Positions 157 to 36,874 are shown, numbered from the stretch's first letter. The stretch: 42,178 bases of DNA from Candidatus Aenigmatarchaeota archaeon (GCA_030619735.1 JAUXAV010000001.1:1-42178), one strand, 5' to 3'. Program-made: numbers and translations. The notes: generated by a model not told the origin, from the sequence alone.

Positions 157-191
157 AACAATCACTCTGTTTAGATAAGATAATATTAGTA

Positions 192-199
192 TATTTAAA
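192..199 (-). promoter_or_regulatory. Candidate archaeal TATA box (TTTAAATA on minus strand) for rpl10e
   Basis: Plus-strand tatttaaa at 192-199 is TTTAAATA on the gene strand, 36 nt upstream of the ATG at 156. This fits the TTTAWATA consensus with a short or absent leader. Confidence 0.45.
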
Positions 200-224
200 T
201 GTTATAAAGTATGTGACTACAAAC

Positions 225-788: not shown

Positions 789-802
789 ACCATCAAGTTA
801 AT

Positions 803-822
803 TTTATAAAAAAGATTTAAAT
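803..822. promoter_or_regulatory. Candidate bidirectional TATA region between dcd and the nucleotidyltransferase gene
   Basis: TTTATAAA at 803-810 and the palindromic ATTTAAAT at 815-822 lie in a 49-nt divergent spacer. ATTTAAAT is ~27 nt from the dcd ATG (788) and ~22-29 nt from ATG 844, consistent with near-leaderless archaeal transcripts. Confidence 0.4.
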
Positions 823-837
823 GTTAACAGGATAGGA

Positions 838-2474: not shown

Positions 2475-3316
2475 GGTTTCTCCTTTGTCATCTCCATGGT
2501 TATGTCCAGGGACTTAAAAGAATGGGTAAGGCCTCCTATGGATATGAAATCCACGCCGGTTCTGGCAACCCTCTCAAGGTTGGAGAGGTTTATTCCTCCG
2601 GATGCCTCCAGCTTGGCTTTACCCTTAATCATACTGACCGCCTTCTCCATATCTTCAGGGGGCATGTTGTCAAGCATTATTATATCGGGTCTGGATTCCA
2701 GGGCCTCCCCCAGTTGCTTTAGGGTTTCCACCTCTATCTCTACCTTCCCCTTTGATTTCCTCCTGGCGCTTTCCAGGGCATTTTTCACAGAGCCTGCAAG
2801 CATTATATGGTTGTCCTTTATCAGGGCCATATCGTAAAGGCCCATCCTGTGGTTTTCCCCTCCCCCGCATCTTACAGCATACTTTTCCAGGATTCTAAGG
2901 CCAGGGGTTGTCTTCCTGGTGTCAAGGATTTTTGCCTTGCAGGGCTTTACAGCCTCTACAAATTTTTTGGTGGTGGTAGCCACGCCGGAAAGCCTCTGCA
3001 GGAAATTCAGGGCAACCCTCTCACCGGTCAGGAGGGCCCTGGCATTGCCCTCAATCTCTGCCAGTTTCTGACCCGGCTTTATACCGTCCCCGTCCTTTGC
3101 AAGGGGCTTGAATTCAATATTTGGGTCCAGTTCCCTGAAAACCAGTTCTGCCACCCTGAGGCCGCACAGAACACCCTCCTCTTCTGCTTTAAGGACTGCC
3201 CTGGCTTTGAGATCCTGGGGGATTACAGCCTCGGTTGTTATATCTCCCTCTCCTATGTCCTCTTCCAGAGCCAGTCTGATTATGCCTTCAATCCTTTTGT
3301 GGTCTAGAGCCTGCAT
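2471..3316 (-). CDS. nadC: Nicotinate-nucleotide pyrophosphorylase (quinolinate phosphoribosyltransferase)
   Basis: ILDTRKTTPGLRILEKYAVRCGGGENHRMGLYDMALIKDNHI and IMLDNM are classic NadC motifs. Confidence 0.9.
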   Translation of the reverse strand: MQALDHKRIEGIIRLALEEDIGEGDITTEAVIPQDLKARAVLKAEEEGVLCGLRVAELVFRELDPNIEFKPLAKDGDGIKPGQKLAEIEGNARALLTGERVALNFLQRLSGVATTTKKFVEAVKPCKAKILDTRKTTPGLRILEKYAVRCGGGENHRMGLYDMALIKDNHIMLAGSVKNALESARRKSKGKVEIEVETLKQLGEALESRPDIIMLDNMPPEDMEKAVSMIKGKAKLEASGGINLSNLERVARTGVDFISIGGLTHSFKSLDITMEMTKEKP

Positions 3317-4020
3317 ACGGGCGGGACCTCCCTCTTGTGTTTTGATTTCTTAATCATATCCTTGACCTGCTTTAGCTTGTCTGGGTCAAGGCCCTGGGTC
3401 TTGTTGTTTTCCAGGGCTTCAAGGATTCTGTCAAGCTCCCCATAGGTTATGCCCAGTTCCTTTTCATCATACTGTCCTTTCCATAGGCCTGCTGATGGTG
3501 ATTTGTTTATAATCTCGTCTGGAATTCCTAATTCCCTTGCCAGTTCTATAACCTGGGTCTTAAACAGGTCTCCTAGGGGTAGTATGTCCGCGGCGCTATC
3601 GGCATGCTTAGTTAGGTAGCCTATGAGTAGTTCTGTCTTGTTTCCTGTCCCGACAACAAGGTATTTTTTGAGGTTTGCAAAATAGTAGAGGGTGAGCATC
3701 CTGAGCCTGGGTTTTATGTTCGCCCTTGATATCTGGTCCCCCTCTGGGAGCGAGCGGGCAATTGTATCATATGCCTCTGACAGGTCAATGGTCTCTGTTT
3801 TGATATTGAATTTTTCAGTTATTAGCTTGGCGTGCTCCAGGTCTTTGGGGTCAGAATGGCAGGGCATGAGCAGCCCTAAAACATTTTCATCTAGGGCCTT
3901 TTTGCAGAGGACTGCTGTGACTGAGGAATCCAGGCCGCCACTAAGGCCTAATACAGCACCCTTTGCGCCTGCGGATTTCACCCTTTCTGCAATCCATTCG
4001 GATATTTTTTCCGGTATCAT
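3304..4020 (-). CDS. nadE: NH3-dependent NAD+ synthetase
   Basis: 238 aa. PP-loop VLGLSGGLDSSV and LVVGTGNKTELLIGY.TKH.D motifs typical of short NadE. Overlaps nadC and the upstream GT4 gene. Confidence 0.85.
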   Translation of the reverse strand: MIPEKISEWIAERVKSAGAKGAVLGLSGGLDSSVTAVLCKKALDENVLGLLMPCHSDPKDLEHAKLITEKFNIKTETIDLSEAYDTIARSLPEGDQISRANIKPRLRMLTLYYFANLKKYLVVGTGNKTELLIGYLTKHADSAADILPLGDLFKTQVIELARELGIPDEIINKSPSAGLWKGQYDEKELGITYGELDRILEALENNKTQGLDPDKLKQVKDMIKKSKHKREVPPVCRL

Positions 4021-9211: not shown

Positions 9212-9670
9212 CTAGAGGATTTTGTTCGCCTTTATCACTATATCCCTGGGATTAAGACCTGAAACTGATTCAACCTGAATATAAATTTGTTGGGGTTGCC
9301 TTTTATCTTTATCCCATTCCCGAGCGTGTCTAACCACATAGTCTACTGATTTGTCCCTTATGGTCTGTTCTGGGAAAAGCGAGGCATGCACGCCGCCCCA
9401 GACTACCGGCAGGTGAGGGTCCTTCTCCTTCACAATATCAGAGAGCCTCACGCCGTGGGCAATCTGGTCTGACATGGCTGTTATACCCACCATCTCTGTC
9501 TTGTTAATAAGGGATTTGAGAATGGATTCAGAATCCTCTATCTGGGAGTCAAGAATCCTTACCCTATGCCCTGCCCTGTGTAGAACCGTACCCAAATAAA
9601 GAAGGGACATGTAAAGGTTCACGGTTCCCTCCTCGCCCTTGGGGTTTATTATCGTTATATGCATCTGCAT
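9212..9670 (-). pseudogene. N-terminal B12-binding-domain fragment of a radical-SAM paralogue (no CX3CX2C core)
   Basis: The first ~113 residues (LLYLGTVLHRAGHRVRILD...VVWGGVHASLFPEQTI...VDYVV) align with the N-termini of the 490-aa and 500-aa B12-rSAM proteins. After ~9331 similarity is lost, and the ORF ends at 9212 without the Fe-S motif. Confidence 0.65.
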
Positions 9671-17730: not shown

Positions 17731-19335
17731 TTATTGGCTTACTTCATAGATTATGAAGATTCTCTGCTCGTCTCTATATATTTCCTTGGCTTTTTTAAAC
17801 CTGGAATCATTCTCAATTTCATTGTATGGTTCTGAGCGAAATGTGTAATCTGGTGGTATTCTGCCGTTACAGTATGGCCTTTTTACAAACGGTATTTCGA
17901 AGGGGCCAAACTTTGGATGAAAGTATGCAGTGACCCCAGACTCCTCGTAATCGTAATAAATCGATATAACAACATAATCCACCCCGTTATTCTTAAACCA
18001 ATTATAATCGAACAATTTGTAGATTGTATAATTCCCCGATTTCCTTATATTGAAATATTCCAAATAATCAGGATGGCTTATATTAATCAATATATTCATA
18101 AATTTGTCAAATTCCATTTTTTTGCCATTAAACTCTGTGTATCGTGGCACGGAAAGTATGTTCTTCGTTGTGGTTGACTTTAAGTAGTATGGTAAGTATT
18201 CAGTGGCTATGGTGATATCCCCTTCAATAGAGTTTATATATTTCGATAGCTCTTCTGTGCCCCATAAACTTTTCTCTTCCAGGTCTATTAAATAAACAGT
18301 GTTCATGAATGATGCTAAAACAAGGACAGAGAAAATGCCGTAAACTAATCTTTTGTCTAGTTTACTCTGTGCTGCAACGAACCCTTTCGATGCGAATATG
18401 GCAAAAATTGGGATTAAAAGAGAAAGATATCTTAGTCTTAAATGCCCTGACCAGATGAAAAAACCAGTATACATCAATAAGCATATTAAGAAAAACACGC
18501 CTTTTTTTTCATTCCTTACAAACAACATGCCTAAGATTGAAAATAACAGCGTTGGTACAAAAACGAATTTTGTCAACTCGGATATATTCCATGGTGATAT
18601 AAAGAATGTTAGTTGTCTTGTTACAAGAATGTTTGCTCCGGAAAATATACTAAAAAACAAATAAGCAAGAACAAATATGATGGGAACTAAAGCTGCCGAA
18701 ATGATAAATTCTTTTGATATAAAGATTCTGGGCTTCTTTCTGTACAGGACGTAAATCAAGAGGGGAATTAAAAAAATTATTATGTTGAATTTAAGAAGCA
18801 TCCCAAGAGAAAGGGATAATGCTGAAAACAAGAAATACTTTTTATCCCTTTCTACACCTAAGTAGAAATTAAATATAAAGAGTGCCGAAAAAACCGCCAA
18901 AGGTATATCAGTCAATACCGATAGTCCCCACCTCCAAAAAAAGGGGAACGTAAAAATGAAGATGGTTGATAAAAAGGCCTCTTTTTTCCCATAAATTTTC
19001 CTTACGTAAAAATACGTGACCAAAAGTAGGAGATTCATAAAAATTATTGGTATGAGAATTCTGGCACCATTAATCCCAATACCTGATAATATGGATAATG
19101 AAATAATAGAGGGGATAAAAGGTAGTCTGTGAGTGAAATCATCCGGGTATTCTCCGATTAGAATGGATTTCCCGACAAATATATAATTAGTCTCGTCTGG
19201 ACTAAGTGAATTAAGATCCATAAAAATCGGGATAAGTATTGTTGTGAGCAATAAAACAGTAAGAATAAACATTAATTCATTTCTTTTGATATTTTTCATA
19301 ATTTTTGATTGCACTTCTGACACCTCATACTTCAC
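17731..19335 (-). CDS. GT-C fold membrane glycosyltransferase (ArnT/PMT, GT39/83-like) with C-terminal soluble domain
   Basis: 534 aa, many hydrophobic segments. First-loop PDETNY..G motif (D-E of GT-C enzymes). C-terminal tail ...RIFIIYEVSQ is shared with the other GT-C paralogues. Very AT-rich: lines at 18301 and 19021 count 21 and 19 G+C of 60. Confidence 0.7.
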   Translation of the reverse strand: MKYEVSEVQSKIMKNIKRNELMFILTVLLLTTILIPIFMDLNSLSPDETNYIFVGKSILIGEYPDDFTHRLPFIPSIISLSILSGIGINGARILIPIIFMNLLLLVTYFYVRKIYGKKEAFLSTIFIFTFPFFWRWGLSVLTDIPLAVFSALFIFNFYLGVERDKKYFLFSALSLSLGMLLKFNIIIFLIPLLIYVLYRKKPRIFISKEFIISAALVPIIFVLAYLFFSIFSGANILVTRQLTFFISPWNISELTKFVFVPTLLFSILGMLFVRNEKKGVFFLICLLMYTGFFIWSGHLRLRYLSLLIPIFAIFASKGFVAAQSKLDKRLVYGIFSVLVLASFMNTVYLIDLEEKSLWGTEELSKYINSIEGDITIATEYLPYYLKSTTTKNILSVPRYTEFNGKKMEFDKFMNILINISHPDYLEYFNIRKSGNYTIYKLFDYNWFKNNGVDYVVISIYYDYEESGVTAYFHPKFGPFEIPFVKRPYCNGRIPPDYTFRSEPYNEIENDSRFKKAKEIYRDEQRIFIIYEVSQ

Positions 19336-19518
19336 AAAGTGAAATATAAATGGACATCAAGGAATTGACACATATATAGACTTTAATAGAATAATTAGTA
19401 GGCGGCAATATAAATCTTCCTCAACCGGCACAATTCTATGCCAAGCTCCAATACACAGTTAATTATTTATACCCAGTAGTTGAAATAAATCTATCTATAA
19501 TAAGTTTTGGTAATTTGA

Positions 19519-20238
19519 ATGGTCAAGAAAAAAAAAATGAGTGAGAAATATCTACTCAAACACCGCTACCTGATCACAGACAAGCGATATTTAATATATA
19601 CAAAAGAACTGTACGGTAGAATTGCTAAATCAGTAGCAAAAAGGCTTGCAAAAACCAGGATAACCCCTAATCAGGTAACTATACTTTCACTTTTTTTGGG
19701 TTTAATTTCTGGCCTGTTGTTCTCATTCGGATATCAGATATATTTGATAATTGGTATTGTCTTATTGCAGCTTTCTGTATTTCTTGACTATCTTGATGGT
19801 AATTTGGCCAGGGAAAAAAATTCAATGAGCGCTTTTGGGTGTTGGCTGGATAGTTTCGGGGACAGGATAATTGATTTCTTTGTTTTTTTCGGTTTAGCGT
19901 GGGGTGCCTTTTCCATAACGGGCAATTATTTAATTTGGATTCTATGTTCACTTATTTTAGGTGGGCACTATCTGATAGTGTTTAATTATCTAGCAGTCAT
20001 AGTAAGTATTTATGAAATGAGAATTACGAAGAAAATAGAAACGAGCAGATTTATGAAAATTTTCGGGTATTCCAGAAGCAATATATACCTTTTGTTGGTG
20101 GTTTTTGTTTTGCTAAACAACATTTTATGGTATTTTTATTTGATGAGTATTTATTCTTGGTTGTGCTATCTGGGCTCTGTTTCTTTTTTCACAATAAAAA
20201 TTAAGAAATACAGTGAATCAAGGAAGGATTCTACGTAA
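19519..20238 (+). CDS. CDP-alcohol phosphatidyltransferase family protein
   Basis: DYLDGNLAREKNSMSAFGCWLDSFGDRIID fits DGx2ARx8Gx3Dx3D. Multi-pass membrane protein. An A10 tract (19528-19537) lies between two in-frame ATGs at 19519 and 19537. Confidence 0.8.
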   Translation: MVKKKKMSEKYLLKHRYLITDKRYLIYTKELYGRIAKSVAKRLAKTRITPNQVTILSLFLGLISGLLFSFGYQIYLIIGIVLLQLSVFLDYLDGNLAREKNSMSAFGCWLDSFGDRIIDFFVFFGLAWGAFSITGNYLIWILCSLILGGHYLIVFNYLAVIVSIYEMRITKKIETSRFMKIFGYSRSNIYLLLVVFVLLNNILWYFYLMSIYSWLCYLGSVSFFTIKIKKYSESRKDST

Positions 20239-24783: not shown

Positions 24784-26286
24784 CTATTTTTCTATCCTTT
24801 CCTTAAGGGCGCCCCTTACCTTTTCCGCGAATATGTATTCAAATGGGAATGAGAAGAATCGGTGCTTCCATCTTGCGGCTGCAGTTGGCCTGAAGATTCT
24901 CATGAAGAGGCTGTAAATGGATTTTGTCTGCTTCCAGAGTATATATTCTGAATCCGAGCCGTGGAGTAGGAAGTTGGAGTACATGATGGCCTTATAAAAC
25001 CACATATTATCAAGGTAGTTGTATTCCATTTCCTCCCTGAATCTCCCCCAGTCCTCAAGCCTCTGGGGAGATTTCCATCCCATTTGAACCACCCGATTGA
25101 ACAGCTCACTTCCTGGGTATGGAGCAAAGAGGGAGACAGCGTGCGCTATCTTGGGGTTGATTTTGTTTATAGCATCTATCAATCTTACGGTTTTAATGGC
25201 ATCGGCCTTTGTCTCTCCTGGTATCCCCACCATCCAAGAATACTTGGCGCCGATTCCGTATTCCGTGGAAAGCCTTGCAGAATCCAGTATCTGTTCCAGT
25301 GTTATGTCCTTGTGGATGAGGTCAAGTATCCTCTGTGAGCCAGATTCTGCACCAAAGGCAACATGATGGCATTCAGTATCCTTAAGGCTCTGGAAGAGGC
25401 TGTCTGTTTTATGGACATCCACCCGGAATCCGTCCTCTATTGCCCATACAAGGCCAAGGTCCTTGAAGAGTTCCCCTATCTTCACTATCCTTTTCTCAGG
25501 GCCCATGAAGGCATCGTCAATAACTATTCTTTTGACCCCGGCCTTTACCAAAGGCTGAATCTCCCTTTCTATTTTCTTGGGGCCCCAGGCGCGGTAAATC
25601 CTTTTCGTGCAGAGGAGATTCCAGCAGAATGAACACCTGAAGGGGCACCCCTTGCTGGTTATGATATGTATGGTCTTTAGGCCGCCGGAGTCAAAGATGT
25701 ATCTTTTGAGATTAATCAGGTCCAGGGCCATTGAAACCTCCTTGTCCCAGTCCCTTATAATGGGCCTATCTTCTGTATGCACTGGTTTGCCGTTGCGCTT
25801 AAAGGTAAGGCCCTTAACCGAGCTGATATCCCTACTGTCCTTCAGGGCGTCCGCCAGCTCCACAGATGTTATCTCCCCCTCCCCTCTGCAGACTATGTCG
25901 ATGTTGGGGTTTATTACTGTCTGCTCTGGCAGGATATCCGGATGCGGCCCGCCCCAGACTATTTTTGTGTCCGGACTTGCCTGCTTTATGAACCTTGAGA
26001 GCTCAATTGCATCCAGTATGATAGGTCCTGTGAAAATCGTGAATCCCACGAAAAGTATCCTGTTCTCGCGGAGCGCCTTCACCAGGTCCTTTCGGTCATC
26101 CAGCCTGTCGTCAAAAATAAGCACCCTGTATCCGGCCCTGCGCAGGCTTGATGCTAAGAAAAGCGGGCCGTAAGGCAGGTTTACTATCTTGTACGGAGAG
26201 ACAATGTTTGGCTGTATCAGGATTATGTCCACCTTTGATGGACAGCTGTTGCCCTTAGGCAACATTATGTCATATTTTCCTTTCAT
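24784..26286 (-). CDS. B12-binding-domain radical SAM protein (class B type)
   Basis: 500 aa. LFLASSLRRAGYRVLIFD...VWGGPHPD cobalamin-domain-like N-terminus and TSKGCPFRCSFC (CX3CX2C). Last gene of a long minus-strand operon. Confidence 0.8.
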   Translation of the reverse strand: MKGKYDIMLPKGNSCPSKVDIILIQPNIVSPYKIVNLPYGPLFLASSLRRAGYRVLIFDDRLDDRKDLVKALRENRILFVGFTIFTGPIILDAIELSRFIKQASPDTKIVWGGPHPDILPEQTVINPNIDIVCRGEGEITSVELADALKDSRDISSVKGLTFKRNGKPVHTEDRPIIRDWDKEVSMALDLINLKRYIFDSGGLKTIHIITSKGCPFRCSFCWNLLCTKRIYRAWGPKKIEREIQPLVKAGVKRIVIDDAFMGPEKRIVKIGELFKDLGLVWAIEDGFRVDVHKTDSLFQSLKDTECHHVAFGAESGSQRILDLIHKDITLEQILDSARLSTEYGIGAKYSWMVGIPGETKADAIKTVRLIDAINKINPKIAHAVSLFAPYPGSELFNRVVQMGWKSPQRLEDWGRFREEMEYNYLDNMWFYKAIMYSNFLLHGSDSEYILWKQTKSIYSLFMRIFRPTAAARWKHRFFSFPFEYIFAEKVRGALKERIEK

Positions 26287-26322
26287 TAAAAATCTATTCC
26301 ATGGAATGTTTTAAATATTAAT

Positions 26323-27504
26323 CTAAGCCACCCTTCTATAGACCTTCATTATGTCAAGGGAGACCCTTGCCCATGAATAGTCTTTGATTGCCTTCTCCCT
26401 GCAGGCCCTTCCGAGCTTCTTTATCCTTTTTTCATCATTAAGGAGGCCTGCAAGCATTTCTGCAAACTCATGGAAATCCTGTGCACTGGCATAGACACCG
26501 AGGTTTCCGAGTATGTGCCTGTTTACTGGATAGTCAAAAACCACGCTCGGGATTCCCATTGCCATGTAATTATAAACCTTTTCATTGCCCTCACCAGAGG
26601 TGATTATCTTTGGTGAAACCCCCACATGCGCCAGGGAAAGGTATCTGGGGATGTCAAAATAGCTTACCTTGCCTGTGAAGGTGATGTTATCCTGCACCCC
26701 GAGCCTCCTTGCCATCCTTGAGTAGTGCTCGATATTCGGGAAGCCTATTATAAGGAAGTGTGTTTCAGGTGCCTCCTTCAGCACTTCGGGTATGGAGCCT
26801 ATAAGACCGTCGATTCCCTGATAGGGATGGAGCGTGCCTATGTATGTGACAACCCTCCTTCCCTGGGGGATTGAAACCCTTTTCCTGATATTGCCTGGCT
26901 TCACATCCGGGGAGAAGATATCCGTGTCAACACCGTCACCTATAACCGTGACCCTTTCCTGGTCTATCCCGAAATCTTCCGTCAGGACCTTTGCGTTCTG
27001 GTTGGAGCTTGTTATTATCTCGTCTGCACGGCGGTTCAGCATCCCCTCGATGCGATGCCAGAATCTGTAAGAAGTGCTGCCCTTTCTTAGGAAGTGCTTT
27101 GCCAGCATCTCCCCTGTGAGCGAGCCTTCGGCATCAAATACAATGGGCCTCCTTCTGAAGAGCCGGAGCAGACTCCCGACAGCAACCCCTTCATGCAGAA
27201 AGGCGTGTATTATATCATAGTCCCTCTCTAAGAACCTCTTTAGTGCAATAGAGGATAAGAGCACATCCAGATAAATCTTATGGAAATTGGCACCCACGGC
27301 TGTGCTTCTATACCATGGGATGCTGGGTATCCTTTTAATCTCAATGCCCTTTATATTCCTGCCCAGATGGTATGCAAAAACCGTGACCCTGTTGCCGAGC
27401 TTCTGGAGTGACCTTACCTCTTCCAATACGCGGATGGGGGTTCCTCTGTCCTCAAAGAAGGGGACAGGAGATATGTTTGCAATCCTGTACATAGTTATAA
27501 ACAC
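26323..27504 (-). CDS. Glycosyltransferase, GT4-like (GT-B fold)
   Basis: 393 aa. Two-Rossmann GT-B layout. Divergent C-terminal motif SGEGNEKVYNYMAMGIPSVV in the glycos_transf_1 position. Confidence 0.65.
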   Translation of the reverse strand: MFITMYRIANISPVPFFEDRGTPIRVLEEVRSLQKLGNRVTVFAYHLGRNIKGIEIKRIPSIPWYRSTAVGANFHKIYLDVLLSSIALKRFLERDYDIIHAFLHEGVAVGSLLRLFRRRPIVFDAEGSLTGEMLAKHFLRKGSTSYRFWHRIEGMLNRRADEIITSSNQNAKVLTEDFGIDQERVTVIGDGVDTDIFSPDVKPGNIRKRVSIPQGRRVVTYIGTLHPYQGIDGLIGSIPEVLKEAPETHFLIIGFPNIEHYSRMARRLGVQDNITFTGKVSYFDIPRYLSLAHVGVSPKIITSGEGNEKVYNYMAMGIPSVVFDYPVNRHILGNLGVYASAQDFHEFAEMLAGLLNDEKRIKKLGRACREKAIKDYSWARVSLDIMKVYRRVA

Positions 27505-27507
27505 ACA

Positions 27508-28629
27508 TTAAAGATTAAAAAAGGATTTTACACCAGAAATCACCCTGTCAATATCCTCCTGCTTCATGTCCGGGTAAAGCGGGAGTGTTACCAGCCTTTT
27601 CCATATCCTGTCCGCAACAGGCACATCTGCAGGAACATTGCTGTATATCTTGTGCATGTGAAGAGGGAGATAGTGGACGCTTGTTGATATCCCCAGTTTC
27701 TGCATATGCTCCATAAATCTGTCCCTATTTTCTATTTTGGCAACGTAGTTGTGATGCGAGCTTTCGGCATATTCCTTTACCACAGGGGTCTCTATGCCGT
27801 TTATATCAGCAAATGCCTCGTTATATATCTTTGTAATCTCTTTTCTGCGCCTGTTGGTTTCTTTGAGCCTCTCCAGCTGGGCGATTCCAAGGGCCGCGAT
27901 TATGTCGTTCATATGGCTCTTGAATCCCAATTCCTTTACCTCATAGCGCCAGGAATAGGAGGCCTTGCCTGAACGCTGGTGCGTGCTCTTGTCAATGCCG
28001 AACCATCTGAGAAGCTTTGCCCTTTCAGCAACCTCGGGTATGTTCGTGGTAAGCATGCCCCCGTCGCCAGTGGTCAGGTTCTTAACTGCATGGAAGCTGA
28101 AGCAGCCTGCATCGCCAAGGGAGCCGGCGGGTTTTCCCTTGTAAAGGGAGCCGCAGGCATGAGCAGCATCTTCTATAACCCTTATCCCCCTGTCCCGGGC
28201 TGTCTCAAGTATCTCATCCATCTCTACTGGATGCCCCCCGTAGTGCACCACTATTATTGCCTTTGTTTTTTCAGTTATCTTCCTCTTCACGTCCTCAACA
28301 TCTATGTTGAGGGTGTCCTCCCTTATATCAGCAAAAACCGGTTTTGCATTGCAGTAATTGGCCACCAGGGCAGTGGAAATGAATGTGATTGCAGGGACAA
28401 TGACCTCCCCTGAGTTTATATTGAATGCCGCAAGCGCTAGGTGCATTGCGGCTGTTCCTGAGTTGAGGCCCACTGCGTATTTTGTCCGGCAGAAATCGCT
28501 GAACCTGCTCTCAAATTCCCTTGTCTTGGGGCCGAAGGTTATCCAGCCTGAGCGGAGCACATCTGTTACGTACTCTATCTCCTTTTCTGTCATGGAGGGC
28601 TTGAAAACAGGTATTATCTTTTTATCCAT
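27508..28629 (-). CDS. DegT/DnrJ/EryC1/StrS-family PLP-dependent sugar aminotransferase
   Basis: LNSGTAAMHLAL, IEDAAHA and SFHAVKNLTTGDGG (Schiff-base Lys). Confidence 0.85.
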   Translation of the reverse strand: MDKKIIPVFKPSMTEKEIEYVTDVLRSGWITFGPKTREFESRFSDFCRTKYAVGLNSGTAAMHLALAAFNINSGEVIVPAITFISTALVANYCNAKPVFADIREDTLNIDVEDVKRKITEKTKAIIVVHYGGHPVEMDEILETARDRGIRVIEDAAHACGSLYKGKPAGSLGDAGCFSFHAVKNLTTGDGGMLTTNIPEVAERAKLLRWFGIDKSTHQRSGKASYSWRYEVKELGFKSHMNDIIAALGIAQLERLKETNRRRKEITKIYNEAFADINGIETPVVKEYAESSHHNYVAKIENRDRFMEHMQKLGISTSVHYLPLHMHKIYSNVPADVPVADRIWKRLVTLPLYPDMKQEDIDRVISGVKSFFNL

Positions 28630-28725
28630 ATCTGCATCTCCTATTAACTAAGTGCATAGTTAAACTATGCAGAGATGTCTCTTGCACCGTTAACCAATAA
28701 TATTGGTTGACTGGAGACAAGATAT
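28630..28725 (-). repeat. Leader repeat, copy 2: fills the whole cupin-to-aminotransferase intercistronic spacer
   Basis: TGCAGAGATGTCTCTTG at 28668-28684. A near-perfect 11-bp palindromic hairpin at 28689-28699 / 28701-28711. GGAGACAAGATAT at 28713-28725. AATAGGAGATGCAGAT lies directly before the ATG at 28629. Confidence 0.8.
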
Positions 28726-29121
28726 TCACCCTTTTTTCACGCTCCATTTGTATGCGTCAGGGTTTTCAGGATTGTACGGCAGGGTGGTGTAGATGAAGAG
28801 CACGGCATCCCTGTCCCCGATGTTTTCAATTGCATGGCCAATACTGGGGTCCACCCGGACTGTTATAGGCTTCTCCCCGCTCATTCTCATCCTTTCCTTT
28901 CCCAGGTAAAACATGACCTCCCCGGAGAAGATAGTAAAGAATTCTGTCTGCCTTTTATGGTAGTGAAGGCCCTTTGTTTTGCCTGGCTTGATAACGATAA
29001 GGTAATTCTGGCCAAAATCCTTTACTCCCTTCATAATTTCTGAATCAGAACGCAGGGTTTCCATTACTATGCCATTGTCATCAGTTACAACCTTCACCTT
29101 CTTTTTCATCATCTCAATCAT
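28726..29121 (-). CDS. RmlC-like cupin (sugar-nucleotide isomerase/epimerase-like)
   Basis: 131 aa. KGLHYHKRQTEFFTIFSGEV..., then HAIEN...LFIYTTLPYNPENPD. Small cupin barrel of the WxcM/FdtA/RmlC type. Specific activity not assignable. Confidence 0.55.
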   Translation of the reverse strand: MIEMMKKKVKVVTDDNGIVMETLRSDSEIMKGVKDFGQNYLIVIKPGKTKGLHYHKRQTEFFTIFSGEVMFYLGKERMRMSGEKPITVRVDPSIGHAIENIGDRDAVLFIYTTLPYNPENPDAYKWSVKKG

Positions 29122-30134
29122 CCCTCTTCAACAAACCATTCCTTTGCCCTCTTAAGCCCTTCGTCAAAGCTTATCTTCGGTTCCCAGCCCAGGGTCTCCC
29201 TTATTTTGGTAGTGTCCGGGCATCTCCTGTTCGGATCGTCCTTTGGAAGGGGCTTGTGCTCAATCTCAACGTCCCCGAAGAGCCCGACTATCTTTTCAGC
29301 CACATCCTTCATGGCCACCTCCTCACTCCCGCCTATATTGAAAAACTGCCTGGATGCCTCTTTCTTCAGTGAAACGTCCAGTACTCCCCTGAGCGCATCC
29401 GAAAGATAGAGGAAGGCCCTTGTTTGCTTTCCGTTGCCGTAGAGGGTTATCTTTTTCTCCTTCTTGGCGTTGACCAGCCAGTTTGCAATCACCTTTCCGT
29501 GGGGGTAGCCGAAGCTCTGCCTCGGACCGAATATGTTGAAGAACCTCAGTATGCGGAAGTCGACCCCGTGCTGGCGGTCGAATGCATGGATTATGGCCTC
29601 TGCAGCACGCTTGCCCTCATCATAGGTGGAGCGCGGGCCTGTGCAGGAAACATTGCCCCTGTAGGTCTCCGGGGTGGGCACCACCGTAGGGTCACCGTAT
29701 ATCTCTGAGCTGCTCGGGAAAAAGAAGGTTGAGTTCCATTCATGGGCTTTTTTCAGGAGCGCGTGGGTGCCAAGTATATTGGTCAGGAATATATCAACAC
29801 CATATTTGAGGAAGGCACCTGGGGCATTGACGCTGGCCAGATGGTAGATGATGTCAAATCCGGAAAGTCCTTCTGGTATCTTGCCGCTCCGGAGGTCCCA
29901 TTTTATGAGCTTGAAATTGCTGTTGCCTGCAAGGTGCTCTATGTTCCTTGGGGGGCCGCTGGAGAAGTTGTCCAGGCACACCACCTCGTTTCCTGTCTTG
30001 ATAAAGAAGTCGCACAGGGAGCTGCCTATGAATCCGGCGCCGCCTGTGATAAGGATTTTCTTGCTGCTTATCTCTGGGGAGTTCTTTATTACATTTTCTA
30101 TGTCTTCCCGGAGTATCCTGTTCATGGAAATCAC
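29118..30134 (-). CDS. UXS/ArnA-C-terminal-like NAD-dependent sugar-nucleotide decarboxylase/dehydratase (second paralogue)
   Basis: ILITGGAGFIGSSL and PSSSEIYGDPTVVPTPETYRGNVSCTGPRSTYDEGKRAAEAI. Same signature block as uxs but diverged. Confidence 0.7.
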   Translation of the reverse strand: MISMNRILREDIENVIKNSPEISSKKILITGGAGFIGSSLCDFFIKTGNEVVCLDNFSSGPPRNIEHLAGNSNFKLIKWDLRSGKIPEGLSGFDIIYHLASVNAPGAFLKYGVDIFLTNILGTHALLKKAHEWNSTFFFPSSSEIYGDPTVVPTPETYRGNVSCTGPRSTYDEGKRAAEAIIHAFDRQHGVDFRILRFFNIFGPRQSFGYPHGKVIANWLVNAKKEKKITLYGNGKQTRAFLYLSDALRGVLDVSLKKEASRQFFNIGGSEEVAMKDVAEKIVGLFGDVEIEHKPLPKDDPNRRCPDTTKIRETLGWEPKISFDEGLKRAKEWFVEEG

Positions 30135-30156
30135 TTAAGATATTTATTATAACTAT

Positions 30157-30786
30157 TTAAATCTTAATTTCACCAGTTTCTGACTGGTTGTTGAGATTAG
30201 TGACCCTACGCCTGCGGGTCATTCTGCGGTAGCATCTGTATGGAATATATGCTAATAGCTTTATAAGGCAAAGGGACAGGCGGCCCCTAAGATTGAAGGC
30301 TATCATCATCAGATAGTTGTCACCGCCATCAGAGCATACACAGAAGCCATGCTTTTTGTAAAGATGGATGGCTGCCTGGTTTTTTTTCCACACGGCCGCA
30401 CAGATATAGGGGTATTTTTCCCTCCCTATTCTTGTTATTTTTTTCAGCAACCTGCTGCCAATGCCCTTGTTGCGGAACCCGGGAAGGACAGCAATAAACA
30501 GTGATAATACGCCACTAGCTTTCTTGATTCCGGCAAGCCCAAGGATGGTGCTGCCTTTTTTTATGTCTGCATCTCTCCTTTTGAACTGTAATGCAGAGAT
30601 GTCTCTTGAACTATTAACCAATTTACTCTGTTCATTGAAAACAAGAAACACGATTTCCTTGTTTTTTGATACATCATGCCTTAAGGCGCTCTGTATTCTT
30701 TTGTCCTCCCCCTTCAGTCCCCTGAAGAAATGCTCCATTGCCGGCGTCATACAAACACTTATATTTATTGCAATATTTAAATTCAT
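30157..30786 (-). CDS. GNAT-family N-acetyltransferase carrying an internal repeat-derived segment and an odd basic tail
   Basis: FIAVLPGFRNKGIGSRLLKK...NQAAIHLYKKHGF is the acetyl-CoA-binding core. Residues ~58-78 (NSSRDISALQFKRRDADIKK) are encoded by leader-repeat copy 3. A ~45-aa Arg-rich tail follows the normal GNAT end. Confidence 0.65.
   Translation of the reverse strand: MNLNIAINISVCMTPAMEHFFRGLKGEDKRIQSALRHDVSKNKEIVFLVFNEQSKLVNSSRDISALQFKRRDADIKKGSTILGLAGIKKASGVLSLFIAVLPGFRNKGIGSRLLKKITRIGREKYPYICAAVWKKNQAAIHLYKKHGFCVCSDGGDNYLMMIAFNLRGRLSLCLIKLLAYIPYRCYRRMTRRRRVTNLNNQSETGEIKI
30565..30650 (-). repeat. Leader repeat, copy 3 (shortened, hairpin lost), embedded in-frame in the GNAT ORF
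   Basis: TGCAGAGATGTCTCTTG at 30592-30608 is identical to copies 1 and 2. GTCTGCATCTCTCCT at 30565-30579 corresponds to ATCTGCATCTCCT of the other copies. ATA occupies the position of their ATG. Confidence 0.7.
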
Positions 30787-32153: not shown

Positions 32154-33257
32154 GTGATAATGATACAGGCGTTTGAACTGAACAGGCAGTACCATTCCAT
32201 TAAGGGGGAGATTGACAAGAAAATCCAGGAGGTTTTGGATAAGGGGAACATGATACTGGGCGAGAATGTCAGCTGCTTTGAGAGGGATTTTTCAGGGTAT
32301 TGCAATACAAAATTCGGTATAGGGGTTGGCTCAGGGACTGCTGCAATACATCTGGCGCTGCTTTCATGCGGTGTTTCAAACGGCGACGAGGTCATAACAG
32401 TCCCAAATACAGCAGTGCCAACGGTCTCTGCCATATCCCTGGCGAATGCCATTCCGGTCTTTGTGGATGTTGACCCGGAGACCTACACCATCAACACAAA
32501 AAAAATCGAGGAAGGGATAACCAGAAAAACCAAGGCCATTATCCCTGTCCATCTGTACGGGCATCCCTGCGACATGGACCCTGTTTTGGAAATAGCTGAA
32601 AAGCACGGATTGAGGGTCATAGAGGATGCCTGCCAGGCGCATGGCGCCAAATACAAGGGCAGGAGCGTCGGCTCCCTGGGGGATATCGGGTGCTTCTCCT
32701 TCTACCCCACCAAGAACCTCGGGGCATACGGGGATGGCGGCATGGTTGTGACAAGGAATGAAGAGCTCGCTGAAACCGTAAGACTGCTCAGGAATTACGG
32801 GCAAACCGAGAAGAATGTGCATAAGATAATAGGATTTAACTCCAGGCTTGATGAGATACAGGCCGCCATCCTCAGGGTGAAGCTCAAGCACCTGGAGGAA
32901 TGGAACGCCAGCAGGGCAGGGAAGGCAAGGCTGTACCATAAGCTCCTGGATGATTCGGTTATTACCAGGCCTGTTGAAAGGAAATGGGCCAGGCACGTGC
33001 ATCATCTTTACGTGGTCAGGTCAGGAAAAAGAAATCAGCTTCAGGAGTGGCTGAAATCCCAGGGCATACTAACAAACATACACTACCCCACCCCTGTTCA
33101 TATGCAGGAGGCCTACAGCTATCTGGGCTACGGGAAGGGCAGCTTCCCTGTCAGTGAAAGGAACGCAGGGGAGATACTGTCACTGCCCATGTTCCCTGAG
33201 CTTACCAGGGAGGAGATAGAAAGGGTGGCAGCTGCTGTAAACAGTATGAAACAGTGA
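32154..33257 (+). CDS. DegT/DnrJ/EryC1/StrS-family PLP-dependent sugar aminotransferase
   Basis: [23 protein letters not shown] and [15 protein letters not shown] (catalytic Lys). The start may be GTG 32154 or ATG 32160. Confidence 0.85.
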
Positions 33258-33310
33258 TATATGTTTATAAAGGATTATATGAATAAAAGAGTGCTGAGGA
33301 GGTCAGTTGA

Positions 33311-34396
33311 ATGAAGGGTCTGATACTCGCAGGTGGCTTGGGAACAAGGCTGAGGCCGCTTACATACAGCGGTTCCAAGCAGCTGATACCTGTGGCGAAT
33401 AAGCCTGTGCTGTTCTACGGAATCGAGGACCTGAAGGAGGCAGGAATAAGGGACATAGGAATAATCGTGGGCTACACCGATGAAAGGGTACAGTTCATTA
33501 AGGATGCTGTGGGGGACGGCTCAAGATGGGGGGTGAAGATTACATACATAAGGCAGGACGCACCAAGGGGTCTGGCCCATGCGGTTACAACAGCAAGGGA
33601 TTTTATAGGGGGTGATGATTTTGTTGTTTATCTGGGGGACAATATACTGAACAAGGGGATAAGCAGCTTTGCTGAGGAATTCAGAAATTCGGATATGGAT
33701 GCAAGCATACTGGTCACGCAGGTGGAGCACCCGGAGATATATGGAGTGGCCATGATTGGCGATAACAGAGAGATAATAGAGATTGAGGAAAAGCCGGAGA
33801 ATCCCAAGAGCAACTATGCGATTGTCGGTGTTTATTTTTTCAGGTCCTCTATCTTTGAGGCAATCAAGAAGATAAAGCCAGGGAAAGGGGGCGAACTGGA
33901 ACTAACAGATGCCATCCATGAGCTGGTTGTTTCAGATAAGCACAGGGTGAATGCCCATGTTGTGAAGGGCTGGTGGGATGATACAGGAACAGCTGAGGCA
34001 GTGCTCCGTGCCAATCACCTCGTTTTGACCGATTTGAAAGCGAAGCGAGAGGGCATTGTAGAGGAGGGAGTGCGGCTCATTGGGAATGTGGCTCTAGGTA
34101 AGAATACGATTATTAAAGCGGGAACCTTGATACGTGGTCCGGTTATTATTGGGAAGGATTGCCAAATTGGACCAACATACTTGGGTCCATATACCTCCAT
34201 CGGGGATAACTGCGTCATCCGAGGTGGAGAGATTGAGTCATCAATTATCATTGGCGATACACACATCAATTTGGAAGCTAATAAACGGATTGTTGATAGC
34301 TTGATAGGGCGGCATACTATTATCAATTCGGCGAGAGAAACTTTGCCCAGCGGCTGCAAACTTGTCCTCGGTGAGAACTCGGAGGTACAAATATAG
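33311..34396 (+). CDS. rmlA: Glucose-1-phosphate thymidylyltransferase, long form with C-terminal left-handed beta-helix; chimeric codon usage
   Basis: MKGLILAGGLGTRLRPLTYSGSKQLIPVANKP plus hexapeptide-repeat C-terminus. The first 12 Arg codons are all AGG/AGA. Of the last 8, from codon 233 (34007) on, 7 are CGN. Confidence 0.8.
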   Translation: MKGLILAGGLGTRLRPLTYSGSKQLIPVANKPVLFYGIEDLKEAGIRDIGIIVGYTDERVQFIKDAVGDGSRWGVKITYIRQDAPRGLAHAVTTARDFIGGDDFVVYLGDNILNKGISSFAEEFRNSDMDASILVTQVEHPEIYGVAMIGDNREIIEIEEKPENPKSNYAIVGVYFFRSSIFEAIKKIKPGKGGELELTDAIHELVVSDKHRVNAHVVKGWWDDTGTAEAVLRANHLVLTDLKAKREGIVEEGVRLIGNVALGKNTIIKAGTLIRGPVIIGKDCQIGPTYLGPYTSIGDNCVIRGGEIESSIIIGDTHINLEANKRIVDSLIGRHTIINSARETLPSGCKLVLGENSEVQI

Positions 34397-34405
34397 AAGG
34401 AAACG

Positions 34406-34450
34406 CATATCTTAATAACTAGCGGCGTCGGCTTTGTCAGCTCTAATTTA
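34406..34450 (+). pseudogene. rmlB: Degenerate N-terminal Rossmann stub of rmlB (dTDP-glucose 4,6-dehydratase)
   Basis: Translation HILITSGVGFVSSNL versus the canonical (I/V)L(I/V)TGGAGFIGSNL; two Gly of GxxGxxG are now Ser. No start codon. Sits where rmlB normally starts, behind rmlA. Confidence 0.45.
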
Positions 34451-34504
34451 AGAAATGAAGAAAAGGTTCCTGCACAAGGGCCGTGGGGCCGGAGGTATCA
34501 AAGG

Positions 34505-35617
34505 ATGACAAGGATTTGGGACATTGACGTAAAGCAGTTCCGTACCGGGGAGAAGATTCTTAGACATCCCGGGCGCTTAAGGGAGTGGTTGGACGGTCGC
34601 AATCCCTTTCCCATTATGGTGGAATTTGACATGACCAATGTATGTAATCACCGGTGCCCGGAGTGCATAGCCAACCACTATCGCAAGGTCGATCGTGTTT
34701 CGCTCTCCGGTGACTTAGCGAGGCGGGTGATATCGGAAATGGCCGAGGGCGGACTGAAAGGCATATCCTTCACCGGTGGTGGCGAGCCCTTTTGCAACCC
34801 TGATACTTGCGAGACGATCCGCTGGGCGAAGAAGTGCGGGCTGGACGTGGTCGTAGTCACCAATGGCTCTCTCTTGGACGACGCTGTGTGTGAAACCATA
34901 GTTGAGAATTGCATAGGTATCGCCGTCTCCTTGGATGCGGCCACGCCGGAGACATTCCGGAAAATGCATGGTAGGGGAGCCAAGCATTTCTTTCATGTCG
35001 TGGCAAACATTCGCCGACTTGCTGAAGCGAAGCAGAGGGTGGCCAGCAACTGTAGCGTCGGTCTGGCCGTGTTGACCTGCGATACAACAAAACCGGATAT
35101 GGTGGCTGCAGCGAAACTGGCGAAGGAGGTGGGGGTGGACTATGTGCACTTCCGGCCCCTAATGATCCACCGCGGAGGCCAGTTCAAATACCACTGGCCC
35201 GATATGGAAAAGGAGCTCGAAGCGTGTCTAGACTTGAGGGAGCCGGGAAGCTTCGATGTGCTTTTCTCCAAGGACAAGTATCTCTCTATTCGGGAGGTGA
35301 ACTTTGGTCGTAGTTACGGCCGTTGCTTCGGACACCAATTTGCCGGCGCCGTTTCTGCGAACGGGAAAGTGTATCTGTGTTGCCACCTGAGGGGCTATCC
35401 CCAGTACGATCTTGGAGATTTGCATAACCAAAGTTTTCGTGACATCTGGAATGGAGAACGCAGACGCCAGGTCATAGCCAGTATTGACTTCCATGATTGC
35501 ATCCCGCTCTGTCGCTGCAACGCGTTCAATAAAGTGCTATGGGAGATATGGAACGACCCTTCCAGCCTCGATGCGCGGATTCTTGAGATGCCCATTCCCC
35601 ACGAGAACATACTGTAG
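34505..35617 (+). CDS. Radical SAM protein with SPASM/twitch-type C-terminal Cys motifs
   Basis: 370 aa. MTNVCNHRCPEC (CX3CX2C), SFTGGGEP (GGE SAM-binding motif). C-terminal CFGHQFAGAVSANGKVYLC fits CX12GX4C, followed by DCIPLCRC (CX3CXC). Confidence 0.8.
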   Translation: MTRIWDIDVKQFRTGEKILRHPGRLREWLDGRNPFPIMVEFDMTNVCNHRCPECIANHYRKVDRVSLSGDLARRVISEMAEGGLKGISFTGGGEPFCNPDTCETIRWAKKCGLDVVVVTNGSLLDDAVCETIVENCIGIAVSLDAATPETFRKMHGRGAKHFFHVVANIRRLAEAKQRVASNCSVGLAVLTCDTTKPDMVAAAKLAKEVGVDYVHFRPLMIHRGGQFKYHWPDMEKELEACLDLREPGSFDVLFSKDKYLSIREVNFGRSYGRCFGHQFAGAVSANGKVYLCCHLRGYPQYDLGDLHNQSFRDIWNGERRRQVIASIDFHDCIPLCRCNAFNKVLWEIWNDPSSLDARILEMPIPHENIL

Positions 35618-35654
35618 GCAGGGAGCGGCTGTTCCCCAATTATTAGAGCTAAGG

Positions 35655-35918
35655 ATTCTTGGTAAAGTAATAAACATTGGTAGCGGAAGATATACAAATG
35701 TGATTACAATTGCGAGATTGATTCTGGACTGTATGAATAAGCCAGAATCTTTGCCCCAGCACGTTAAAGATAATAGACCAGGGCATGTTAGGCAACACTT
35801 AGCCTCTAATGATAAAGCTGAAAGGCTTTTGGACTGGAAGGCAAGGACAAGGTTTGAAGATGCCTTGAGGGAAACCGTTAACTGGTATCGAGAGAATGAA
35901 TGGTGGTGGAAGGCTTAG
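35655..35918 (+). pseudogene. rmlB: C-terminal ~87-codon remnant of rmlB (dTDP-glucose 4,6-dehydratase)
   Basis: GKVINIGSGRYTNVITIARLILDCM...VKDNRPGHVRQHLASNDKAERLLDWKARTRFEDALRETVNWYRENEWWWKA matches the RmlB C-terminus (YNIG..., DRPGHD.RYA.D..K....LGW.P...FE.GL..TV.WY..N..WW). The upstream part of track ORF 35484-35918 overlaps the radical-SAM gene and is not homologous. Confidence 0.75.
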
Positions 35919-36874
35919 TCTTCCTGTTCTTTTCTTGCAGGCATCCTGAACCAGATGAGCATGCCTATTATGCCCAAGAGTATGTGTCCAACAAAGAGTA
36001 TGACAAGGGAGAATGAGATGGCTGATTCTGCTGTCAGGTGAATGAATGCAAAGAAGAGCACCAGTGCAGCATCCCTTGTGCCTATGCCTGAAAGTGAGAC
36101 GGGCAGGGCCTCCAGGAGCATGGTAATGGGGGTTATCATCAGCAGGAACTGGAAGGGAAGTGTGATGTTCAGGGCCAGAGCCATGAGGTAGTACTGGAAT
36201 ATTGTAAGGAGCATGGCTATTATTCCCAGAACAGTTGAAACAATTATAATGGTTTTTCTGTTCCTCATAATCCCCAAACCCTTGTAAAAGTCATTGAATA
36301 CTGTACCTAGCTTCGGCTTGTATCTGTCCGGAATCATGGCCCTGAAGAAGGGCCTCAGAATCCGGATGACAAACCCCTTCCTGGTAAGGAGGAATACAAA
36401 CAACAGGAATAGGATGAAAATAACCACTACTGACAGGAGCAAATCAAAATATCCTGCGTAAAACGATGCGAAGAATACTATCCCTATCAGGGCCAGGGAG
36501 AACAGGACAATAACGTCTATGATTCTGTCCACCATAACGGTTGTCAGGGACTTGCCCAGGGAGGTCTTCTCCCTGAGGTAATACGCCCTGTAAAAATCCC
36601 CAAGCCTGCCAGGGGTTATAAGGCTCACGGAATAGCCGACCAGCCAGGCCCCAATGGATTTTATAAAGGGATAATCGATATTATATACCTTCATGAGCAT
36701 CTTCCATTTGAATGCCTTTACTGCAATTATAGGGACTATAAAAATGATGGAAATGGAGAGGTAGAACATGTCTGTGTTTTTCAGTATGCTGAGTATTTCT
36801 AGCAGGTTCATGTTCCAGATTATATACAGGAACAGCACAATACCTATTACTGGCAGAAAAATCTGAAGCTTCAT
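35915..36874 (-). CDS. Flippase-like membrane protein (UPF0104 / lysyl-PG-synthase TM-region family)
   Basis: 319 aa, ~8 TM segments. AVKAFKWKMLM, LITPGRLGDFYRAYYL and LPVSLSGIGTRDAAL are typical of this family. Confidence 0.65.
   Translation of the reverse strand: MKLQIFLPVIGIVLFLYIIWNMNLLEILSILKNTDMFYLSISIIFIVPIIAVKAFKWKMLMKVYNIDYPFIKSIGAWLVGYSVSLITPGRLGDFYRAYYLREKTSLGKSLTTVMVDRIIDVIVLFSLALIGIVFFASFYAGYFDLLLSVVVIFILFLLFVFLLTRKGFVIRILRPFFRAMIPDRYKPKLGTVFNDFYKGLGIMRNRKTIIIVSTVLGIIAMLLTIFQYYLMALALNITLPFQFLLMITPITMLLEALPVSLSGIGTRDAALVLFFAFIHLTAESAISFSLVILFVGHILLGIIGMLIWFRMPARKEQED

Follow-up and report, generated by a model that had tools for sequence, protein, structure and literature searches.

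What becomes of a deoxythymidine diphosphate (dTDP)-sugar locus when rmlB is missing from its place behind rmlA and a radical S-adenosylmethionine (rSAM) gene stands there instead? A stretch of 42,178 nucleotides (nt) of DNA from a Candidatus Aenigmatarchaeota archaeon (GCA_030619735.1 JAUXAV010000001.1:1-42178; the whole stretch is referred to here as the window) raises this question. In it, a DegT-type sugar aminotransferase gene and rmlA are followed by two fragments of rmlB, with an rSAM gene between them. The sequence leads us to interpret the locus as a scar that recombination has left in a hypervariable island of archaeal glycan-biosynthesis genes. We favor, with moderate confidence, a cassette swap that installed a sugar-modifying rSAM enzyme and in which the local 6-deoxy branch was lost.

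The local rmlB is a dead remnant that consists of a stub and a 97-codon tail. The stub (HILITSGVGFVSSNL) lies in the 5' part of the 108-nt spacer that separates rmlA from the rSAM gene and aligns by tblastn to residues 2-15 of the RmlB encoded at a related locus, L059 (34406-34447, 8/14 identical). Against RmlB N-termini it has a BLOSUM62 score of 49; the five genuine short-chain dehydrogenase/reductase (SDR) N-termini of the window score 47-67. The next-best background 15-mer scores 27 (n=47,559), and 20,000 shuffles of the spacer never reached the score of the stub. Pfam and PDB searches with the stub alone, which is too short for them, gave no match. Three Gly/Ala positions of its motif are mutated and its start codon is absent. 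RmlB is the dTDP-glucose 4,6-dehydratase, and the tail matches positions 226-319 of the 321 in its model TIGR01181 (E=1.9e-18, 66.7 bits vs. a cutoff of 365) and residues 238-319 of the PDB RmlB 2hun (E=7e-14). By tblastn, residues 232-314 of L059 RmlB map to 35661-35915 (45% identity, E=6e-22).

RmlB residues ~16-231 are absent; they comprise the remainder of the NAD-binding fold together with the Thr-Asp-Glu motif and the catalytic YxxxK residues. A first-pass annotation, made by reading the sequence alone, had described rmlB as gutted. Both fragments do align to RmlB (by tblastn of a relative's RmlB, TIGR01181, and the shuffle test), and the central loss is confirmed, at ~216 codons rather than the ~240 first estimated. 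A mutated 15-residue stub and a tail are all that is present, which places the gene outside RmlB as defined by TIGR01181 (a full SDR scoring at least 365 bits).

We compared the window with six loci (L059-L064), chosen because they encode relatives of its RmlA. In all six, rmlA leads directly into an intact RmlB-like SDR gene (315-349 aa; the L060 product stops at 125 aa at a contig end). Flanking synteny with the window extends to L059 and L064. The gene order of L059 (DegT-rmlA-rmlB-PMT_2 ... GT2-SDR) matches that of the window with amino acid identities of 69-86%, including 78% for the DegT protein. At its right boundary, the RmlB remnant of the window meets a convergent LPG_synthase_TM gene that overlaps its stop codon by 4 nt. 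L064 has a convergent LPG_synthase_TM gene with the identical 4-nt overlap, but onto an intact rmlB. The relatives keep rmlB after rmlA; the window departs from this pattern through loss of its rmlB.

The rSAM gene differs in composition from the other 39 open reading frames (ORFs) of the window, which served as the reference set. Its observed/expected (o/e) CpG ratio is 0.98, compared with 0.43±0.12 in the reference ORFs (z=4.5), and CGN codons account for 21 of its 30 Arg codons (9 AGR) vs. 75 of 702 (11%) elsewhere (Fisher p=2e-13). The DegT gene has the composition of the host (20 AGR, 0 CGN), and the RmlB tail contains 9 AGR codons and 1 CGN codon. In rmlA, AGR serves for the first 12 Arg codons (to 33944), CGN for the next 7 (34007-34310), and AGA for the last (5' vs. 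3' shift, Fisher p=1e-4). The stub is CpG-rich and resembles the foreign patch. The rSAM patch is foreign, and the compositional shift is significant.

The break within rmlA is also apparent from comparison with relatives. The gene is intact and encodes a glucose-1-phosphate thymidylyltransferase, RmlA in its long form (TIGR01208, 421.8 bits over residues 2-360 vs. a cutoff of 320.25), but it is recombinant, with its 5' two-thirds of host type and its 3' third, from ~33968, of a second lineage. Over residues 1-221, RmlA shares 85.5% identity with the L059 protein P0123 and 56% with the L061 protein P0124; for residues 222-361 the corresponding values are 55% and 97%. At the nucleotide level, blastn aligns 33297-34020 to L059 (82%) and 33968-34395 to L061 (95%), and the 53-nt overlap of these matches (33968-34020) marks the crossover. 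L061 comes from the KR126 deep-sea sediment metagenome assembly (SDBU01; Loki's Castle) (PMC6401483). L061 uses mainly CGN codons, while the host-like L059 uses AGR. Counts and alignments thus agree with the first reading on the Arg codon pattern across rmlA, the rSAM gene and the tail, on the CpG richness of the rSAM gene, and on a left junction inside rmlA (~33968-34020, where 82% identity to L059 gives way to 95% identity to L061).

These observations show that the locus goes back to an ancestral DegT-rmlA-rmlB arrangement. Incoming DNA recombined homologously inside rmlA, at ~33968-34020, and the foreign segment replaced everything up to ~codon 231 of rmlB. This segment carries the 3' third of an rmlA from another lineage, the decayed start of an rmlB, and an rSAM gene of ultimately bacterial affinity. 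The rSAM gene, which ends 10 nt before the RmlB tail, would have its own ribosome-binding site (a Shine-Dalgarno-like GGAGGT 7 nt upstream of its ATG) and is probably co-transcribed with DegT and rmlA. We searched for repeats, att-like sites and hairpins around the insertion and identified only short repeats of 10-22 nt, which are most likely chance matches.

The 370-aa ORF belongs to the Radical_SAM superfamily (Pfam accession PF04055, 66.6 bits vs. a cutoff of 29.5) and has a SPASM/twitch-type domain at residues 274-338 (Pfam accession PF13186, 46.1 bits vs. a cutoff of 21.5). It is intact and contains the CX3CX2C and CX12GX4C motifs first read from the sequence, as C47/C51/C54, invariant across 21 homologues, and as a hairpin motif formed by C274/G287/C292. 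A predicted SAM-binding GGE lies in an FTGGGEP stretch in which F89-T90-G91-G92-G93 and P95 are invariant in the alignment. Nine Cys residues (C47, C51, C54, C136, C274, C292, C293, C332, and C336) are conserved in 21/21 aligned homologues. The seven-Cys arrangement of a full SPASM domain (CX2CX5CX3C) is missing: downstream of the hairpin only C332x3C336 is conserved, with C338 added in a subclade. Because four to five conserved C-terminal Cys occur without CX2CX5CX3C, the protein likely carries one auxiliary [4Fe-4S] cluster of a twitch-like type, as judged from these residues.

We scored the protein against NCBIfam equivalogs that include W-cofactor maturase, AhbD, NirJ, viperin, MoaA, MftC and anSME; the best 25 of 66 matches all fell far short of their equivalog cutoffs, the top one being TIGR04317 (92.8 bits vs. 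380). An AlphaFold (AF2) model (pLDDT 83.9, pTM 0.87) finds its best PDB matches exclusively among DesII chains (E=9e-16, TMq 0.66-0.70), followed by SuiB, CteB, SkfB, BlsE, MoaA, anSME, PqqE, viperins and BtrN. Membership among maturases of peptides that are ribosomally synthesized and then post-translationally modified, viperin-like, MoaA-like and lipid (GDGT-MAS) enzymes was rejected on sub-threshold scores and the glycosyltransferase context. An exact look-up of the rSAM protein returned no contig on record.

We identified 615 homologues of the rSAM protein at E<=1e-3. One of them (P0002) is 66% identical and the rest are at most 53% identical. Nearly all genome matches come from bacteria (Omnitrophota, Nitrospirota, Planctomycetota, Sumerlaeota, Elusimicrobiota and Dependentiae), and the few archaeal homologues have 24-35% identity. 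In a neighbor-joining tree, the window protein and P0002 nest in a bacterial clade beside Nitrospirota. At 1-4020, housekeeping genes (dCTP deaminase, NTP-transferase, malate dehydrogenase, nadC, and nadE) abut the glycan island. The closest named sequences of the host malate dehydrogenase are from Aenigmarchaeota (54%) and Nitrososphaerales (~50%), which places the host among poorly sampled archaea. An archaeal host and an rSAM of a bacterial clade suggest that the gene probably crossed between domains at some point.

To describe the surroundings of the family, we assigned Pfam families to the 124 genes that lie within three positions of a homologue at ~30 loci. GT2 glycosyltransferases are the most frequent (25/124), followed by Radical_SAM proteins (20/124, of which 9 have a SPASM domain and 5 a B12-binding domain), GT4 (14/124), and GT9 heptosyltransferases (10/124). 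TPR proteins (6/124) and carbamoyltransferases (4/124) are less common. The intact gene with its ribosome-binding site and probable co-transcription, the glycosyltransferase-dominated context of its homologues in more than 30 other genomes, the DesII-like fold and the C-terminal Cys together lead us to infer sugar-radical chemistry. The enzyme would generate a 5'-deoxyadenosyl radical and abstract hydrogen from a sugar carbon of a nucleoside diphosphate (NDP)-hexose or a glycan intermediate. The auxiliary cluster would serve as an electron conduit, in an oxidation- or epimerization-type modification.

We do not think that such an enzyme would reproduce the 4,6-dehydration of RmlB. Most likely, this locus has lost the 6-deoxy branch, or a gene beyond the window supplies it. 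The window encodes five other SDRs, which all stay below the RmlB cutoff (best 200 bits vs. 365) and all lack the Thr-Asp-Glu motif (STSEVYG, SSSSIYG, STNKVYG and SSSEIYG at the corresponding site, and none in the fifth). No substitute dehydratase is visible within the 42 kb. The intact DegT and rmlA genes are compatible with an rSAM enzyme that would feed a keto-sugar to DegT.

A contig of 1.37 kb (L058) encodes the sole close homologue, P0002, whose ATG comes 4 nt after a gene that ends in ...FIGDDAKVELWR, which resembles the C-terminus of long-form RmlA; the best local alignments of FIGDDAKVELWR end at the C-terminus in 81 of 120 RmlA homologues. Downstream of the L058 rSAM gene, MKVLITGTKGQLGTDL... 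matches the start of RmlD_sub_bind. This sequence context makes it probable that the L058 gene sits between rmlA and rmlD. The window protein and P0002 both retain every conserved Cys and have in common about a dozen replacements at sites where the other 19 aligned homologues do not vary, including T38M, W138G, R140A/S, G188A, Q220M, H257D, K300Q/M and T340A. The shared replacements and the rml neighbors suggest that this subclade probably shifted to a dTDP-sugar substrate. Two metagenome scans (with alignment patterns and with back-translated FRPLMIHRGG) yielded no further rml-linked members, so that the subclade rests on two sequences.

Several observations weigh against the cassette swap, and some of them against a simple single import in particular. 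Near-identity to L061 ends exactly at the rmlA stop codon, L061 carries an intact rmlB after rmlA, and the stub has no near-identity to the rmlB start of L061 or L059. A separate tract at the end of the RmlB remnant (35853-35911) is 93% identical to the 3' end of L061 rmlB and matches it at every synonymous site of shared codons; the preceding 225 nt are distant from both L059 and L061. This stretch is a second L061-like recombination tract. Because L061 has an intact rmlB and the similarity ends at the rmlA stop, the patch derives from at least two sources. At least three sequence sources are interleaved within 2 kb, and recombination probably occurred more than once. The first-pass proposal that rmlA, stub and rSAM gene were imported as a unit is accordingly supported in one respect, the adjacency of a probable rmlA in L058, and complicated in another, the intact rmlB of L061 and the end of similarity at the rmlA stop.

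The RmlB tail adds to this difficulty. It is host-like in composition and far more diverged than the syntenic neighbors (69-86%), yet its frame is open for 97 codons. Its protein identity to host-type RmlBs is 35-42% (35% for its 5' part vs. L059 RmlB). It may be a decayed pseudogene or stem from a divergent lineage; a search against 1.84 billion representatives returned a best identity of 49-53% in a library that is itself clustered at 50%. A single recent event does not account for a tail that is diverged but open and of host composition.

The wider family is a further point on this side of the balance. It is clearly glycan-associated and, as a whole, not rmlA-linked: a relative of RmlA occurs within 8 kb in only 3 of 57 homologue loci, and the 25 commonest families among the 124 neighbors do not include NTP_transferase, Epimerase or DegT. 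The linkage to rmlA anticipated in the first-pass annotation thus failed to appear in the wider family. Since the family lacks a link to nucleotide-sugar genes, a glycan linked to lipid or protein could be the substrate instead of an NDP-sugar. The rml context of L058 rests on flanks of only 20 and 32 residues, with an RmlA-like C-terminus ~2.4 standard deviations above shuffles and an RmlD match (E=6e-4) that is under Pfam's cutoff. None of the three points that the first-pass annotation itself had named as able to overturn it did so: the homologues belong to no characterized non-sugar family, codon and CpG use do shift significantly, and each stub can be aligned to RmlB.

The same family context suits a second explanation, in which the dTDP branch is dead and the rSAM gene is a passenger that acts on another glycan, lipid or peptide substrate or is unexpressed; the locus would then be an ordinary gene-replacement scar. 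Homologues occur among glycosyltransferases and other rSAM genes without nucleotide-sugar genes, and other glycan genes of the window (three GT4, two GT2, three PMT_2, two B12-binding rSAMs and two further NTP-transferases) could supply substrates. Glycan islands are, moreover, recombination hot spots in which gene remnants are frequent. The state of the gene argues the other way: it is intact, keeps all cluster Cys, agrees with the other 19 homologues at 78 of the 93 positions where these do not vary, and is preceded by a Shine-Dalgarno-like site. Its rml neighborhood also recurs in the sole close homologue. We regard this explanation as possible, if on the whole unlikely.

It is quite improbable that the rSAM enzyme took over the step after RmlA by non-orthologous displacement. 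The gene does occupy the exact rmlB slot behind rmlA, both DegT and rmlA are still whole, no other SDR among the window's five qualifies as RmlB, and the closest homologue has a probable rmlA on one side and a probable rmlD on the other. The fold resembles that of DesII, which has been studied with TDP-D-quinovose (PMC11434129), and the subclade replacements at otherwise invariant positions suggest a new substrate. In one variant, radical oxidation of the RmlA product dTDP-glucose at C4 or C3, with the auxiliary cluster as electron sink, would yield a keto-sugar that is aminated by DegT, and a live pathway would produce a different, non-6-deoxy amino sugar; in another, the enzyme would perform a radical 4,6-dehydration. 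We know of no radical SAM 4,6-dehydratase, and hydrogen abstraction by known sugar rSAM enzymes gives 3-keto or 3-deoxy products, not 6-deoxy products. Homologues elsewhere are without rmlA, DegT or SDR partners, and rmlB could lie elsewhere in the genome, of which 42 kb are visible. If the event was recent, the retention of DegT and rmlA says nothing. If true, displacement would mark an entry of radical SAM chemistry into dTDP-sugar diversification and give a family of several hundred proteins its first assigned function.

Very improbable is an assembly artefact, in which sequence from two archaeal populations that occur together was fused where rmlA and the 3' end of rmlB are conserved, so that no single cell would have the rSAM gene in this genomic context. 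The contig comes from an uncultured organism, the left switch falls in the 53-nt L059/L061 overlap and an L061-like 59-nt tract lies near the right end, but synteny and composition are again L059/L064-like on either flank, the sequence that separates the two L061-like tracts does not resemble L061, the stub-rSAM-tail arrangement would still be real in the second population, and a probable rmlA-rSAM adjacency occurs independently in L058 (20 flanking residues only).

Table 1. Features of the locus and CpG ratios of its segments, with positions in the window.
Feature	Position	Strand	Basis
DegT/DnrJ/EryC1-type sugar aminotransferase gene, heads the DegT-rmlA-(rmlB) unit	32154-33257	+	PF01041, 412 bits
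rmlA, long form, intact but recombinant	33311-34396	+	TIGR01208
Degenerate RmlB N-terminal stub (Rossmann GxGxxG)	34406-34450	+	tblastn, score and shuffle test
Spacer with Shine-Dalgarno-like GGAGGT at 34492-34497	34451-34504	+	Sequence reading
Radical SAM gene, SPASM/twitch-type C-terminal domain, 370 aa, intact, foreign composition	34505-35617	+	Pfam
RmlB C-terminal remnant, ~residues 226-319, 97 open codons, diverged	35628-35918	+	TIGR01181, PDB RmlB
L061-like tract (59 nt) at the 3' end of the RmlB remnant	35853-35911	+	blastn and alignment
LPG_synthase_TM-family membrane protein gene, right boundary of the locus	35915-36874	-	PF03706, 141 bits
Segment with CpG o/e 0.50	32154-33967		
Segment with CpG o/e 0.91	33968-34396		
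Spacer including stub, CpG o/e 1.05			
rSAM gene, CpG o/e 0.98			
Segment with CpG o/e 0.40	35618-35852		

Several further features of the window and its relatives were recorded. At 33311-35617, rmlA, a 36-codon spacer and the rSAM ORF share one reading frame, in which the sole stop between the two genes is the rmlA TAG at 34394-34396 (TAA in L061). Read-through of this TAG would yield an RmlA-rSAM fusion; the in-frame arrangement is probably a coincidence (~6% by chance). Downstream of its rmlA-rmlB pair, the Loki's Castle contig encodes ATP sulfurylase, APS kinase and a sulfotransferase (L061:11070-13915), which suggests a sulfated dTDP-sugar-derived glycan in the donor-like lineage. An rSAM/SPASM gene at the edge of L059 was considered and belongs to a different family; similarity of the SPASM domain is all that the two genes have in common.

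Other parts of the island also depart from host composition or contain incomplete genes. A low-GC block at 17731-20238 (33%, CpG o/e 0.67-0.82 vs. 0.43 for the window) encodes a PMT_2 glycosyltransferase and a CDP-alcohol phosphatidyltransferase and looks like another foreign patch. CGN use is raised (14-33%) and CpG o/e is 0.50-0.64 at 24784-30786, where a B12-binding rSAM, a GT4, a second DegT, a small WbcJ-like fragment, an SDR and a GNAT protein are encoded; this is possibly an older acquisition that has been partly ameliorated. A 152-aa ORF at 9212-9670 (- strand) that adjoins a methyltransferase gene has a B12-binding domain and no radical SAM core, and may be the remnant of a truncated B12-binding rSAM gene. 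Another gene remnant may be present at 28726-29121 (- strand), where a 131-aa ORF matches only positions 254-369 of the 372 in a WbcJ-type UDP-sugar reductase.

Among bacterial homologues, two recurrent gene contexts were observed. At 19 loci (L003, L005, L007, L009, L011, L013-L024, L037, and L054), a conserved ~350-aa protein without a Pfam match is encoded directly upstream of the rSAM homologue (e.g. L016:6949-7998) and is often preceded by a carbamoyltransferase. This protein is likely a functional partner of the rSAM family. Elusimicrobiota/Endomicrobia loci (L029-L032, L036, and L038-L042) contain a conserved block made up of GT2, the rSAM homologue, a second SPASM rSAM, GT4 and a GT2-like gene. 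The block is followed by a gene for a giant (at least ~1,500 aa), repetitive, beta-helix-like surface protein, which may be the target of glycosylation.

Whatever the enzyme does, the locus is a clean and finely resolved example of recombination-driven remodeling of an archaeal glycan island. If the rSAM enzyme acts on a dTDP-hexose, a twitch-type, DesII-like step would enter primary surface-glycan biosynthesis; sugar rSAM enzymes have so far been known mainly from antibiotic sugar pathways. It would also provide the first functional handle on a family with 615 matches that is widespread in glycan clusters of Omnitrophota, Planctomycetota, Nitrospirota and Elusimicrobiota, and for which a literature search found no paper describing its characterization. 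In that case the subclade formed by the window protein and its L058 relative, which is rml-linked and has changed invariant residues, would be a natural starting point for assays. As an uncharacterized, DesII-like family that likely bears an auxiliary cluster, these proteins represent a useful lead for enzyme discovery.

DesII (PDB 8HZV/8HZY), the TDP-4-amino-4,6-dideoxy-D-glucose deaminase of the desosamine pathway, is the closest structural counterpart, so that the comparison drawn in the first-pass annotation was apt. DesII acts on TDP-sugars and is built from N-terminal helices, a radical SAM core, and a beta-hairpin with helices; it has a single Fe-S cluster and a six-helix N-terminal domain of ~130 residues (PMC11434129). 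The window protein has the same domain order. DesII works downstream of RmlA, RmlB and a DegT-type aminotransferase, and the window rSAM gene has the same gene company. DesII dehydrogenates TDP-D-quinovose. Unlike DesII, the window protein has ~36 N-terminal residues and five conserved C-terminal Cys for an auxiliary cluster. Sequence identity is only 17-21%, a profile search matches the core alone (E=4e-8), and the protein falls outside the DesII family, with no DesII-type NCBIfam model among the best 25 of 66 matches. As modeled, it resembles DesII in fold only.

The C-terminal domain invites comparison with BtrN and other twitch-domain sugar rSAM enzymes (aminoglycoside dehydrogenases and epimerases), which likewise combine a radical SAM core with a short C-terminal domain. 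In BtrN, a CX(n)GX4C hairpin and later Cys bind one auxiliary cluster that acts as an electron sink; the counterpart in the window protein is C274x12Gx4C292 with C332x3C336. The fold match to BtrN is weak (E=1e-8, TMq 0.43), there is no shared sequence-family membership, and BtrN substrates are free aminocyclitols rather than NDP-sugars. SPASM/twitch peptide maturases (SuiB, CteB, SkfB, anSME and PqqE) are second-tier fold matches (E=1e-12 to 1e-9). The Pfam SPASM match is shared with them, and the best NCBIfam match, TIGR04317, is a SPASM maturase. Unlike these enzymes, the window protein lacks the seven-Cys motif, no precursor-peptide-like genes were seen, and the neighbors are glycosyltransferases.

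At the level of the locus, the likeness to RmlB (TIGR01181) is that of two gene ends in the right order and orientation after rmlA. Gene remnants and sharp compositional steps are typical of mosaic surface-glycan loci. As in mosaic O-antigen, capsule and N-glycan clusters, which are shaped by homologous recombination in conserved genes at their flanks, a crossover in the conserved rmlA has brought in foreign downstream genes. Unlike the usual mosaic cluster, the window belongs to an archaeal host, its cargo is an rSAM gene of bacterial affinity, and at least three sources meet within 2 kb.

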